From positions 1,283,878 through 1,347,877 of the forward strand of contig CAWGLV010000001.1 of NCBI GenBank assembly GCA_963823495.1: a stretch of DNA of 64,000 bases, given 5' to 3'. The notes under the pieces were generated by a model. That model did not search any database. It saw nothing but the letters and a program-made list of their open reading frames with translations, and was not told where the DNA came from. Within the stretch, counting starts at the first letter, position 1, and every line of letters begins with the position of its first letter. A program made the translations under genes and the position numbers. The stretch comes from an uncultured Microthrixaceae bacterium. GTDB lineage: Bacteria; Actinomycetota; Acidimicrobiia; Acidimicrobiales; DATDAH01. Positions 10,701 to 18,543 of this stretch are shown here, piece by piece.

Positions 10701-12989
10701 TGGCGGGCCGCCGACCCTGTCCAGGGCATCTACTGGCTGCCGGGCCTCGACGTCGAGGATCCCGTGACCGACATGGACCTGGCCGCGTGGCGGGAGGCCC
10801 TTCGCGTCCGGGTCAAGCTGCTCTACGCCCTGCTGCGCCACCTCTACGACGACATCGGCCGGCCCGCGACGTTCCTCGTCTCCGCCACCCGACTCGGGGG
10901 CAACCACGGCTACGACAGCTCCGGCGCCACCGCGCCGATGGGTGGCGGCGTCGTGGGCATCACCAAGACGTTCAAGCGCGAGCGCCCTGACGCGCTGGTC
11001 AAGGCGGTCGACTTCGCCCCCAGCCGCAAGACCGCGGCGCTGGCCGACGTCCTCATCGCCGAGACCGAACGCGACCCCGGGGTCGTCGAGGTGGGCCGCC
11101 CCGACGACGACCGTCGCATCACGGTCGCGCTCCAGGAGACCGGGCTGCCCGAGCCGGCCACCGGTATGGAGCTGGGTACCGACTCGGTCTTCGTCGTGAC
11201 CGGGGCGGCGGGAAGCATCGTCTCGGCGATCGTCGCCGATCTCGCCCGGGTTTCGGGCGGGACCTTCCACCTCCTCGACCTCGCGCCGGAGCCCGATGCC
11301 GACGATCCGGACCTCGCCGTCTTCGCGACGGACGTCGACGGGCTCAAGCGGGACATCTTCGAGCGCCTCCAGCGGACCGAGGAGCGGGCGACGCCGGCCA
11401 TGGTCGACAAGGAGCTGGCCGCCATCGAGCGCCGCCAGGCCGCGCTGAGCGCCATCCGGGCCGTCGAGGCGGCCGGTGGCACCGCGCACTACCACAGCGT
11501 GGATCTCCGCGACGGTGGGGCCGTGGCCGTGGTCACCGACGCCATCGCCGCCCACGGGGCGGTCGACGTCCTGATCCACGCGGCCGGCCTCGAGGTCAGC
11601 CGTCTCCTGCCCGACAAGGAACCCGCCGAGTTCGACCTCGTCTTCGACGTCAAGGCCGACGGCTGGTTCAACCTGCTCCGCGGCCTCGCCGACAGCCCGA
11701 TCGGCGCCTCCGTGGTCTTCAGCTCGATCGCCGGCCGGTTCGGCAACGCGGGCCAGACCGACTACAGCGCCGCCAACGACCTCCTGTGCAAGTCCACGTC
11801 CGGCCTGGGCTCCACCCGCCCCGACACGATCGGCCTCGCCGTCGACTGGACGGCCTGGGGCGACATCGGGATGGCCACCCGGGGCTCGATCCCGACCGTC
11901 ATGCGGGCGGCCGGCATCGACATGCTCCCCGCCGCCGCGGGCATCCCGTTCATCCGTCGGGAGCTGATCGCCGACGGGACCACCCGTGAGCTCGTGGTGG
12001 CCGGGCGCCTGGGCGTGCTCACCGAGGAGTGGGACGAGGCCGGCGGCCTCGACCTGCGGGCGGACGGCCCGGTCGGCTCCCGGGTCGGCCCGCAACAGGC
12101 CGCCATGATCACCGGGGTCTCCGCGGACACCCTGGCCGACGGCCTCGTGGCCACCGCCCGACTCGACCCCGCCGCCGAGCCCTTCCTCGCCGACCACCGC
12201 ATCGACGGCACCCCCGTGCTCCCGGGGGTCATGGGCGTGGAGGCGTTCGCCGAAGTCGCCCGCCTGCTGCATCCGGAGCGGGTGGTGACCGCCATCGAGG
12301 ACATCGACTTCCTCGCGCCGTTCAAGTTCTACCGGGACGAACCCCGCGAGCTGAAGGTCGTGGCCCGCTTCACCCTCGACGGCGACGACATCCTCGCCCG
12401 ATGCCGGATGGTCGGCGAGCGAACGCTGGCCACGTCCGACGAGCCCCAGGTCACCGTCCACTTCACGGCGACCGTCCGGCTCTCCGCCGAGGCCAACGAC
12501 GCCGCGGGCCGGGACCCGACCCCGCCGGGTGCCACCGTGGTCCCGGCGGCCGACATCTACCGCATCTACTTCCACGGCCCCGCCTACCAGGTGCTGGCCG
12601 AGGCCTGGCCGACCGCCGCCGGTGCCGCGGGCCGGCTCGTGGACAGCCTGCCGCCGGATCATTCGGCGCCGGCCGCCACCGTGACCGACCCCCGCCTCGT
12701 CGAGCTGTGCTTCCAGACCGCCGGCGTCCTGGAGATCGCGACCACCGCGGCCATGGCGCTGCCGAGCCACATCGACCGGCTGGTCCTGCGGTCGAGGCTC
12801 GAGGCCGCCACGGGGCCGGTCCAGGCCCTGGTGCACCCCACCGGGGACGGCGGGTTCGACGCGGCCGTCGTCGACGGTGACGGCAACGTGCTCCTCGAGC
12901 TCGGCGGCTACCGCACCATCGAGCTGCCCGGTGGCCTCGACGACGAGTTGGTTGCGCCGTTGCGGGACGGCATGGCTACCGCGACCTGA
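4702..12989 (+). CDS. type I PKS/PUFA-synthase-like megasynthase KS-AT-KS-ACPx3-KR-DH, with an apparent -1 frameshift at 10052-10055 (sequencing error or pseudogene)
   Basis: The ORF track splits it into 4702..10503 and 10140..12989. KS1 (~4720-6110): [27 protein letters not shown] (~6470-7340): GQGSQ, GHSLGE, SHAFHT. KS2 (~7700-9210): [25 protein letters not shown]. Three carrier domains (~9508-10355): [18 protein letters not shown] (~10500-12015): [15 protein letters not shown]-type DH (~12100-12945): [10 protein letters not shown]. Restoring one C gives a continuous ~2,762-codon frame. Confidence 0.88.
9460..10375 (+). repeat. three tandem ~318/311-bp repeats encoding ACP domains plus Ala-Pro linkers with (GCTCCG)5/4/3
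   Basis: The GGGGCGCCGGATGGTGAC anchor recurs at 9490, 9808 and 10119. About 250 bp per unit is nucleotide-identical by eye, apart from one missing C. The hexanucleotide linker has 5, 4 and 3 copies. Confidence 0.9.
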
Positions 12990-15900: not shown

Positions 15901-18543
15901 ACCGGGGAGTCGGGTGGCGTCGCCTACGCCGCGGCCCGGTACCCCCGCGAGGGAACGACGATCCAGGCGTTCAGCACCCAGCTCGACGACGATGAGCTCG
16001 CCGCGGGGCTCGAGGCCCTGCGTCCCCTGCTCCTCGACGTCGATCCCGGGCAGGAGGTCGTCCTCGACGTGTACGTCTGGCAGGACGCCGCCGTCGAGGA
16101 TCGGGACGCGTTGCGCGAACACATCCGCTCGGTGCTCGACGAGCGACTCGGCCCCCTGCAGCTCCGACGGGTGGTGGTCGCCATCTCGACGCCGGAGAGC
16201 GGCGCGTCGATGGCCGGGGTGATCCACCTGACCTTCCGGCCCGACGGGGAGGCCGGCTACCGCTACGAAGAACAGAGCCACGGCCTGCACCCCATGATGG
16301 CCAAGCGGCTCGAGCTCTGGCGCCTCGACAACTTCGCGATCGAGGCCGTGCCCACCCCCCCCGACATCTACCTCTTCCACGGGCGGGCCCGGGAGAACCC
16401 GCGTGATGAGCGTCTGATCGCCCTGGCCGAGGTCCGTGACCTCACCGCCCGACGTGACGAGCACGGGGTGGTCCAGCGGCTGCCGGAGTTCGAGCGGGTC
16501 CTGCGCGAGGTCGTCGGGGCCTTCCGCCGGTTCCAGGCCCGCCGGCCCGACGCCCGTCGGCTCCAGTGGAACCGTGTCTTCCTCTATGTCTGGCCACCGA
16601 TCGACCTGACCGTCGAGGACCTGACCCGCCTCGCCGAGCGGGTCGCGCCCGACACCGCCGACCTGGGCATCGAGAAGGTGCTGATCCTGGGCACGGTCAA
16701 GGACCGCGACGGGGCCATCCGCCGACAGGTGTACGACATCGCCGACGGCTCCGGCGCCGGCGTGCGCATCCACATCCGTGACCACGCCGACGAACCGCTG
16801 CGCCCCGTGGACGACTACGTCCGGAAGGTGGTGTCGCTGCGGCGGCGCGGCCTCGTCTACCCCTATGACCTCGTTCGCCTGCTCGCCCCGTCCCCCGGGG
16901 AGTCCGACGGCGACCGGCCGCCGGGCGAGTTCGTCGAGCACGACCTGGAGGGCGAGGGACTCGTCCCTGTCCAGCGCCCCCCCGGGGAGAACACCGCCAA
17001 CGTCGTCGTCGGCGTCATCAGCAACGTCACCGTGAAGCACCCCGAAGGGATGAGACGGGTCATCGTGCTGGGCGACCCGTCCCGGGGCATGGGGAGCCTG
17101 GCCGAGGCCGAGTGCCGGAGGATCGTGGCCGCGCTGGACCTGGCCGAGCAGCTCACGGTGCCTCTCGAGTGGTTCGCCGTCTCCGCCGGCGCCCTCATCT
17201 CGATGGACAGCGGCACCGAGAACATGGACTGGATCGCCGTGGTGCTGCGACGGATCATCGAGTTCACCCAGGGCGGCGGCGAGATCAACGTCGTCGTGCC
17301 CGGCATCAACGTGGGCGCCCAGCCCTACTGGAACGCCGAGGCGACCATGCTCATGCACACCCGGGGCATCCTCGTGATGACCCCCCAGGGCGCCATGGTC
17401 CTCACGGGCAAGGAGGCCCTCGACTACTCCGGCGGGGCCTCGGCCGAGGACAACCAGGGCATCGGCGGCTACGAGCGCATCATGGGCCCCAACGGCCAGG
17501 CCCAGTACTTCGCCCGCGACCTCGGCGACGCCTGCCGGATCCTGCTTCGGCACTATGACCACGCCTACGTCGCCCCGGGCGAGCGGTTCCCCCGGTCGGC
17601 CGAGACCACCGACCCCGTCGGCCGCGACGTGTGCCTGTCCCCCCACGGCGGCGACTTCGCCACCGTCGGCGACGTCTTCTCGGCCGAGGACAACCCCGAC
17701 CGCAAACGACCTTTCGAGATCCGCCGGGTGATGGCGGCCACCGTGGACCAGGACCATCCCACCCTGGAGCGGTGGTACGGCATCGAGGACGCCGAGATCG
17801 CCGTCGTGTGGGACGCCCACCTGGGCGGCCATCCGGTCTGCCTGCTCGGCGTGGAGTCCAAGAACCTGCCCCGGGTCGGGTTCGTCCCCGCCGACGGTCC
17901 CGAGCAGTGGACGGCGGGAACGCTCTTCCCGATGGGCAGCAAGAAGGTGGCGCGCGCGGTGAACGCGACCAGCGGGAACCGGCCCCTGGTCGTGCTGGCC
18001 AACCTGTCGGGCTTCGACGGCTCCCCGGAGTCACTGCGCGCCTGGCAGCTCGAGTACGGCGCCGAGATCGGCCGGGCGGTGGTGAACTTCGAGGGCCCGA
18101 TCGTCTTCTGCGTCGTGTCCCGCTACCACGGCGGGGCCTTCGTCGTCTTCTCGCGTGCCCTCAACGACAACATGGAGGTGGTGGCGGTCGAGGGCTCTCG
18201 GGCGTCGGTCATCGGCGGGGCCCCGGCGGCGGCGGTGGTGTTCACCCGCGAGGTCCGCCGCCGCACTGCTGAGGACCCCGAGCTGGTCGAGCTGGAGCGC
18301 AAGGCCGACGCCGCCGCCGGGACGCTCCGGGTCCAGCTCCGTGACGAGCTCGACCGCCGGCGCCGGGAGATCCACACGGCCAAGCTGGGCGAGGTGGCCG
18401 CCGAGTTCGATGGGATCCACACCGTCGAACGGGCCCTTCAGGTCGGTTCGCTGCAGCGGATCATCCGGCCCGAGGAGCTCCGGCCGTATCTGGTCGATGC
18501 CGTCGAGCGGGGGATCGCCCGTGAGCTCGAGCGGAGGGGCTGA
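12952..18543 (+). CDS. single-chain multidomain acetyl/acyl-CoA carboxylase (BC-BCCP-central-CT), eukaryote-type architecture
   Basis: ORF 12877..18543. BC: [42 protein letters not shown]: VIEAMKMET (biotinyl Lys codon 14878-14880). Central region resembles the ACC_central C-terminus ([21 protein letters not shown]...[17 protein letters not shown]). CT: [10 protein letters not shown]...[50 protein letters not shown]. Start is uncertain: TTG 12952, or ATG 12989 if a G is missing. Confidence 0.9.

Follow-up and report, generated by a model that had tools for sequence, protein, structure and literature searches.

What is a single-chain carboxylase with the domain order of eukaryotic acetyl-CoA carboxylase (ACC) doing inside a synthase operon of an uncultured Microthrixaceae bacterium (Acidimicrobiia, Actinomycetota)? 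The gene that raises this question lies in a stretch of 64,000 nucleotides (assembly GCA_963823495.1, contig CAWGLV010000001.1, forward-strand positions 1,283,878 to 1,347,877), which we call the window and number from its first letter. An earlier interpretation made from the letters alone, referred to here as the sequence-only reading, had described one uninterrupted frame encoding a biotin carboxylase (BC), a biotin carboxyl carrier protein (BCCP) domain, a central region and a carboxyltransferase (CT), embedded in a polyketide synthase operon that it would supply with malonyl-CoA. Our comparisons revealed that the protein is a further member of the biochemically characterised SACE_4237 family, for which the argument on the origin of eukaryotic ACC has already been published, and they point with good confidence to a functional single-polypeptide ACC of this type making malonyl-CoA within a cassette. 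Four co-oriented genes form this unit, encoding an acyl-CoA dehydrogenase-family protein (ACAD), the synthase, the ACC and a 4'-phosphopantetheinyl transferase (PPTase). By its gene order and predicted domain layout, the locus is a Type R secondary lipid synthase cluster in the ACC-containing form.

The carboxylase and its relatives

As read in the window, the carboxylase frame runs without interruption from 12877 to 18543 on the forward strand, and its codon statistics (GC content of 0.92 at third and 0.49 at second codon positions, in surrounding DNA of 72% GC) indicate real coding sequence. Pfam searches, that for PF08326 included, returned all the domains of the sequence-only reading in the order BC, BCCP, central region and CT. 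With codon 1 at position 12877, Biotin_carb_N was found at codons 44-165 (6e-29), CPSase_L_D2 at 170-378 (8e-67), Biotin_carb_C at 390-498 (6e-34), Biotin_lipoyl at 636-700 (2e-13), ACC_central (PF08326) at 1062-1253 (6.6e-11; 41.6 bits, above the cut-off of 23.2; covering positions 463-650 of the 726-position model) and Carboxyl_trans at 1390-1872 (4e-29). No NCBIfam model exceeded its cut-off for the whole carboxylase, which scored only as a member of BC-containing families. The motifs quoted earlier were likewise present, namely EAMKMET in the BCCP domain (14869-14889), LELWRLDNF in the central region (16309-16335) and a 25-residue stretch of the CT at 17998-18072. In translation the BC retained GGGGRG, EK..RHIEVQ, E-x-N-x-R-x-Q-x-E and the arginine of IEARLNAED, and both the biotin-accepting AMKM and the GG of the CT C-half (RYHGGAF) were found; we take the BC and CT motifs to correspond to the catalytic residues of E. 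coli BC and yeast CT. Because the BC, BCCP and CT motifs are intact, the protein is presumed to be an active ACC that would work like SACE_4237.

The likeness to eukaryotic ACC extended beyond the order of the domains. A single-sequence phmmer search of the central region against the Protein Data Bank (PDB) returned no match, and a profile was therefore built from an alignment of 15 bacterial central regions and searched against the same database. This profile matched 11 PDB sequences, all of them eukaryotic ACCs (1e-22 to 2e-14), including those of Chaetomium (5i6h, 1.1e-22), yeast (5csk, 4.4e-18) and human ACC1 (approximately 4e-16), so that the resemblance to the yeast ACC1 central domain, noted in the sequence-only reading, was borne out. 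The alignment covered three stretches (profile positions 153-309, 358-596 and 648-685) and paired a 17-residue bacterial central stretch with eukaryotic IEPSLAFQLELGRLSKF. For the CT region, the 20 top PDB matches were eukaryotic ACC CTs (3e-19 to 9e-11; 3tv5 at 3e-19) and bacterial CTs followed at 7e-9 or weaker, a ranking of similarity only, whereas bacterial BCs and yeast ACC scored about equally against the BC domain. Set beside yeast Acc1p (5CSK/5CSL), the Chaetomium enzyme (5I6H) and human ACC1 (6G2D), the window protein thus has an identical domain order, a central domain that is homologous at the profile level, the L-E-L-x-R-L-x-x-F segment included, and a CT most similar to eukaryotic ones. 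It differs in its length, at about 1,850 aa against 2,200-2,400 aa (350-550 aa shorter), and in covering only part of the Pfam ACC_central model.

The sequence-only reading regarded the enzyme as unusual, with the bacterial LCC as its sole comparator, and this view could not be maintained. Livieri et al. (2019; PMC6491548) characterised SACE_4237 of Saccharopolyspora erythraea, an essential protein of approximately 200 kDa that is homologous to eukaryotic ACCs from end to end, central region included, as a homodimeric ACC that is also a propionyl-CoA carboxylase (PCC), accepts short acyl-CoAs only, carboxylates acetyl-CoA about as efficiently as propionyl-CoA and does not require citrate. The same study found orthologues in eight actinobacterial families ("actinobacterial homodimeric multidomain ACC", group V) whose CT and BC domains cluster with eukaryotic ones, and proposed that eukaryotic ACC possibly derived from this bacterial lineage, which removes the novelty from the evolutionary interest claimed earlier; it did not treat the genomic context of SACE_4237 and its orthologues (PMC6491548). 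The window protein shares with this family a single chain of BC-BCCP-central-CT order (202.7 kDa against approximately 200 kDa) as well as the eukaryote-like central region and CT. We drew the link through the published description and through stand-alone homologues, and not through the SACE_4237 sequence. Full-length identity to the window protein is 50-53% for those of Pseudonocardia and Gandjariella, both in the family of S. erythraea (Pseudonocardiaceae), as well as for those of Actinopolymorpha and Streptomyces. These stand-alone, Pseudonocardiaceae-type copies have unrelated neighbours, in contrast to the window gene, which is fixed between synthase and PPTase.

Nor is the enzyme rare. 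At least 120 full-length homologues shared at least 54% identity and the same Pfam set, and a search with the central region alone found, among sequences clustered at 50% identity, 1,650, 1,061 and 361 representatives with E-values up to 1e-3, 1e-10 and 1e-30, respectively. Enzymes of this kind are thus largely common and already characterised, and what survives of the earlier claim is the role inside the cassette. The family reaches Acidobacteriota, Dormibacteraeota and Myxococcota, beyond the actinomycetes, which bears on the published idea of an actinobacterial origin. One member of a carboxylase cluster, P0273 (3,248 aa; 90% cluster of P0015), is much longer; it may be a read-through product, or a fusion, of synthase and carboxylase encoded on another contig. 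LCC also unites BC, BCCP and CT in one bacterial chain, of approximately 120 kDa compared with 202.7 kDa, but it lacks a central region, carries its CT N-terminal to BC-BCCP, forms a homohexamer and prefers long-chain acyl-CoA (PMC6491548). Membership of the window protein in that family was ruled out by its domain order, with the BC N-terminal and the CT C-terminal, and by the central region.

Gene start and integrity of the locus

The sequence-only reading placed the start of the carboxylase at a TTG (12952). A conserved ATG at 12989 proved to be the better choice, overlapping the synthase stop in a TGATG junction (Table 1), although, as the window reads, a shift of one base separates it from the carboxylase frame. 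A near-identical, independently assembled contig (L089), carrying protein P0271, accounted for this offset: in the DNA alignment the sole difference was a G run at 12994-12998, GGGGG in the window and GGGGGG in L089, and the extra G therefore brings the ATG at 12989 into frame, overlapping the synthase stop. P0271 comprises 1,851 aa (202.7 kDa) and differs from the window protein at four of 1,846 positions. It is the second member of the 90%-identity cluster of P0001, the protein-collection version of the window carboxylase, which has 1,832 aa, begins with MRLINAV and suffers from a too-late start and a truncated BC N-terminus because the run of six G reads as five and places the ATG out of frame.

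A comparable defect was observed in the synthase, which is read as two overlapping frames (4702..10503 and 10140..12989) broken between the second and third acyl carrier protein (ACP) domains, whereas loci L004 and L087 have one gene (~2,900 aa) in its place. The three ACP repeats are 96-97% identical in DNA, and their junctions read GCGCCCCCGGCC (1/2) and GCGCCCCGGCC (2/3), a run of five C against four near 10052-10056; the C missing from the linker between ACP2 and ACP3 thus shifts the frame and explains the two synthase frames. An out-of-frame carboxylase ATG and a synthase frame broken between two carrier domains could be taken as signs of a decaying locus, with the carboxylase start lost, the synthase frameshifted and neither protein expressed at full length. 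We consider this highly improbable and rejected the pseudogene interpretation, because each lesion is one missing homopolymer base (G6 to G5, C5 to C4) and because in the near-identical contig G6 is intact and the product, at 1,851 aa, differs by four amino acids; in addition, about 13 kb are free of any further stop or shift, every motif is preserved and GC3 stands at 0.92. The two deficits, single bases within 3 kb of each other, probably reflect assembly error rather than decay. A scan of 2700-20700 for sigma-70 promoters and intrinsic terminators was uninformative in DNA of 72% GC. Generic names ("carboxyl transferase domain-containing protein"), the mis-called start and the homopolymer frameshifts conceal the operon in present records.

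The conserved cassette and its substrate supply

Table 1. Positions of the cassette genes, their domains and the synthase-carboxylase junction in the window
Feature	Position	Strand	Basis or remark
Acyl-CoA dehydrogenase-family gene, 554 aa, first of the cassette	2975..4639	+	Pfam; conserved synteny
PfaA-like iterative synthase	4702..12989	+	Ketosynthase (KS), acyltransferase (AT), KS-like, three ACPs, ketoreductase (KR), dehydratase (DH); Pfam, NCBIfam
Synthase KS	~4720-5958	+	
Synthase AT	6475-7365	+	Motifs GHSLGE, HAFH; FabD-like score
Synthase second KS-like domain	~7700-9200	+	Cys retained
Synthase three tandem ACPs	9437-10374	+	
Synthase KR	11292-11861	+	
Synthase DH, double-hotdog	12135-12929	+	
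TGATG junction, synthase stop overlapping conserved carboxylase ATG	12987..12991	+	Same junction in L001 and L008
Multidomain acetyl-CoA carboxylase gene	12989..18543	+	1,851 aa after correcting a 1-base G-run deletion at 12994-12998
BC domain (N-terminal, ATP-grasp and C-terminal parts)	13006..14370	+	Pfam; GGGGRG loop 13525-13542, 12-residue motif 13912-13947
Biotinyl (BCCP) domain	14782..14976	+	Pfam; EAMKMET (biotinylation motif, 14869-14889)
Central region, ~690 aa, homologous to eukaryotic ACC central domain	14989..17046	+	Pfam ACC_central 16060-16635; LELWRLDNF 16309-16335
CT domain, N and C halves	17044..18492	+	Pfam; top 20 PDB matches all eukaryotic ACC CTs
Sfp-type PPTase gene, 260 aa	18521..19303	+	PF01648; GTG start 23 nt inside the carboxylase 3' end

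The embedding of the carboxylase in a synthase operon, and its coupling to it, held up well: the gene is flanked by overlapping stop and start codons on each side, and the order is kept in about 30 loci from several phyla. Taking one genome per species, our survey retrieved full multidomain carboxylases at about 40 loci, which were then searched by tblastn with the four neighbours from the window as queries. The synthase lay directly upstream of the ACC in about 30 of these loci, with the PPTase directly downstream in all but one of them, and in neighbourhoods of homologues at 55-73% identity the four genes recurred in unchanged order between differing flanks. The sources comprised Acidimicrobiia, Ilumatobacter, Nanopelagicales, Solirubrobacterales, Thermoleophilaceae, Nonomuraea, Streptosporangiaceae, Nostocoides and Candidatus Dormibacteraeota, and the same cassette was found on a contig of Terriglobales (Acidobacteriota); on L089 the PPTase gene call was identical to that of the window. 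One rearranged locus (L022, Candidatus Dormibacteraeota) carries KR-DH upstream of the ACAD, apart from KS-AT-KS'-ACP4, with ACC and PPTase still downstream.

Nine loci were without a synthase, namely those of Pseudonocardia (two), Gandjariella, Actinopolymorpha, Streptomyces, Paraconexibacteraceae, an Acidobacteriota metagenome-assembled genome (MAG), a deltaproteobacterial MAG and Haliangium. Three stand-alone copies had mutually unrelated neighbours (major facilitator superfamily (MFS) transporters with a GH3 hydrolase; isoprenoid genes with an AMP-binding enzyme; a P-type ATPase). The Haliangium locus (L006) contained only an ACC-PPTase pair with no adjacent synthase, and the PPTase also adjoined the ACC in L056 (Mycobacterium bohemicum), L024, L025 and L034, where the ACC is matched only in part or the upstream flank is cut short. 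Because the pair persists without an adjacent synthase, carboxylase and PPTase may form a sub-unit of their own. In a midpoint-rooted neighbour-joining (NJ) tree of 28 full-length bacterial proteins, whose deep nodes are weak, the Pseudonocardia-type stand-alone proteins formed one clade (bootstrap 70) and the cassette-linked proteins the remainder (bootstrap 39-46); the window protein grouped with those of L001 and L002 (bootstrap 100) inside a clade of Acidimicrobiia and Ilumatobacter (bootstrap 100). That the "eukaryote-type" ACC first stood in the cassette-linked state, rather than as a stand-alone housekeeping enzyme, is speculation, given a midpoint-rooted tree with such deep nodes.

The partner enzyme is not the typical actinomycete polyketide synthase supposed earlier. 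It is a PfaA-like synthase of the Type R secondary lipid kind, whose association with ACC was published in 2011 (PMC3098273). Its best NCBIfam model is PfaA (TIGR02813); the two halves reached 701 and 213 bits, both short of the 1,010-bit cut-off. Shulse and Allen described the Type R cluster as a pfaA homologue of the layout KS-MAT-CLF-ACP(3-6)-KR, where MAT is a malonyl acyltransferase and CLF a chain-length factor, followed by a PPTase gene; such clusters, with an uncharacterised product, occurred in Acidobacteria, Elusimicrobia and Chloroflexi, and in Koribacter versatilis Ellin345, one of the five genomes, an ACC gene termed "part of the ACC complex" lay between the pfaA and pfaE (PPTase) homologues (PMC3098273). 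The window synthase shows the KS-AT-second KS-ACP3-KR layout and adds a DH, and the ACC lies between synthase and PPTase in the window and in the Terriglobales contig as it does in Koribacter. Differences were also evident, since the upstream ACAD and the C-terminal DH are absent from the published description, and the ACC-containing form, confined to one genome of five in 2011, is the common one among the ACC homologues retrieved here. The literature that we searched, which covered few subscription journals and is therefore weak evidence, yielded no later characterisation of Type R and no description of an ACAD-synthase-ACC-PPTase cassette. As far as we found, the extent of cassette conservation is apparently undescribed, and it extends the 2011 observation rather than introducing a new kind of system. 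Most of the carboxylases retrieved sit in this one conserved cassette, a well-defined candidate for identifying the Type R product by heterologous expression.

Two components of the cassette may work differently from their labels. The domain that the Type R layout terms CLF, the second KS-like one, retains its active-site cysteine (NAACAS) and two candidate histidine positions; the cysteine motif is also present in L004, L017 and L019, and the domain may be a second active ketosynthase instead of a chain-length factor. The ACAD gene product has a C-terminal extension of about 170 aa without a Pfam match, and its best NCBIfam match, acryloyl-CoA reductase, fell far below the cut-off. Since the synthase has no enoylreductase domain, this flavoprotein may reduce or desaturate ACP-bound intermediates.

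In the proposed scheme, modelled on what is established for biotin carboxylases and on SACE_4237, the biotin attached to the BCCP lysine (AMKM) would be carboxylated by the BC domain, which draws on ATP and bicarbonate, and the carboxybiotin would swing to the CT active site, where transfer of CO2 to acetyl-CoA would yield malonyl-CoA; no catalytic part would fall to the central region, a scaffold in this scheme, and the enzyme would probably be active as a homodimer. The malonyl-type AT of the synthase would then load this malonyl-CoA onto the carrier domains, which the PPTase would activate. We infer that the four genes are co-transcribed, and their translation would be coupled. Coupling on both sides of the carboxylase gene, the malonyl-type AT and the four-gene order kept across phyla together make malonyl-CoA the natural candidate for the substrate of the synthase, and the product proposed in the sequence-only reading gains support from the same AT, with its GHSLGE and HAFH motifs and FabD-like score.

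An acyl-CoA other than acetyl-CoA is an improbable physiological substrate, be it propionyl-CoA, which would give methylmalonyl-CoA and a branched product, or a longer acyl-CoA. We know of no residue rule for substrate choice in this type of CT, and the ACC and PCC activities of SACE_4237 are similarly efficient. However, the partner AT carries the malonyl-type HAFH and a FabD-like score, SACE_4237 is limited to short acyl-CoAs and the architecture is unlike that of LCC.

Whether the supply would be aimed at the synthase rather than general, that is, dedicated and not housekeeping, is a narrower matter, on which we put the dedicated role at little better than even. A possible but less favoured alternative is that this is the housekeeping, perhaps the only, ACC of the cell, feeding all fatty-acid synthesis as SACE_4237 does, with the operon position reflecting ancestry or co-regulation; it overlaps with the malonyl-CoA assignment and departs from it only over the word "dedicated". 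The protein is about 52% identical to stand-alone Pseudonocardiaceae homologues, most loci retrieved from Acidimicrobiia and Thermoleophilia have the cassette, and Pfam annotation of the 64-kb window, complete to about 47 kb, revealed no type II fatty acid synthase (FAS II) gene and no other carboxylase, all of which would suit a housekeeping enzyme. However, the order of synthase, ACC and PPTase with overlapping codons is strictly kept across phyla while the flanks vary, and the neighbours of the stand-alone copies are unrelated. Nonomuraea and Streptosporangiaceae also carry the cassette form, and they presumably own ordinary FAS II and two-subunit ACCs.

Several observations weigh against the assignment of a malonyl-CoA-forming ACC working within the cassette. 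SACE_4237 is equally efficient with propionyl-CoA, and the substrate therefore cannot be read from family membership. For the window protein, as for any cassette-linked member, ACC activity is predicted from sequence. The inspection covered only the 64-kb window, and should this be the cell's only ACC, "dedicated" would be wrong. Bootstrap values are low (39-70, NJ) at the node dividing the stand-alone ACCs from the cassette-linked ones. Finally, the window as read has the carboxylase start out of frame and a split synthase, for which a strain-specific mutation is possible.

Threonine carrier domains and the remaining genes of the window

For the carboxylase itself little changes through these comparisons; the carrier domains of the synthase have an unusual putative attachment residue. 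All three ACPs of the window have threonine at the position of the phosphopantetheinyl serine (EADLG[IV]DTVKQAE), which aligns exactly with the serine of solved ACPs (DLGADSL, DLGLDSL, DLGVDSI). A tblastn search with the window ACP against every fetched locus recovered more than 100 copies in about 35 loci, all of them reading LG[IV]DTVKQAE, from Actinomycetota, Acidobacteriota and Dormibacteraeota (L001-L044, L087), and some copies, e.g., in L005, contained no serine whatever. Their tandem amplification, strict conservation and always-adjacent PPTase suggest that these threonine-type carriers are functional, which in turn would imply that phosphopantetheine is attached to threonine by a co-evolved transferase. 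The literature searched, with its small share of subscription journals and correspondingly weak evidence, contained no threonine-linked phosphopantetheine, and we know of no natural precedent for it. If really modified, threonine-type carrier domains would widen the known scope of phosphopantetheinyl transferases, and they are potentially more interesting than the carboxylase finding.

Taking these features together, we tentatively suggest, as a possibility rather than an expectation, that the locus represents an ancient, horizontally mobile and self-sufficient lipid-synthase cassette (ACAD, KS-AT-KS'-ACPn-KR-DH, ACC and PPTase) present in at least three phyla. In such a cassette the ACC would be one fixed part, substrate supply and carrier activation would be its own, the PPTase would modify threonine, and the cassette-linked state would possibly be ancestral.

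The remaining genes of the window are of diverse content. Upstream of the cassette, on the reverse strand, lie an MMPL transporter fragment (1-711) and a gene resembling FAD-dependent amine oxidases and desaturases (1203-3146), the latter divergent from the cassette. Downstream, a set of the CO-dehydrogenase/xanthine-dehydrogenase family (20958-30942) begins about 1.7 kb past the end of the PPTase gene (19303) and has no evident link to the cassette; it comprises an FAD-binding subunit, a 2Fe-2S subunit, a molybdopterin large subunit (22194-24782), CoxG, a CoxE-like protein with a von Willebrand factor type A domain, an AAA ATPase and XdhC. Further along, a fusion of an MFS protein with apolipoprotein N-acyltransferase (Lnt; 37571-41257) and a DegV fatty-acid-binding protein (42953-43867) are encoded on the reverse strand, and an S-layer homology (SLH) protein is also present in the window.

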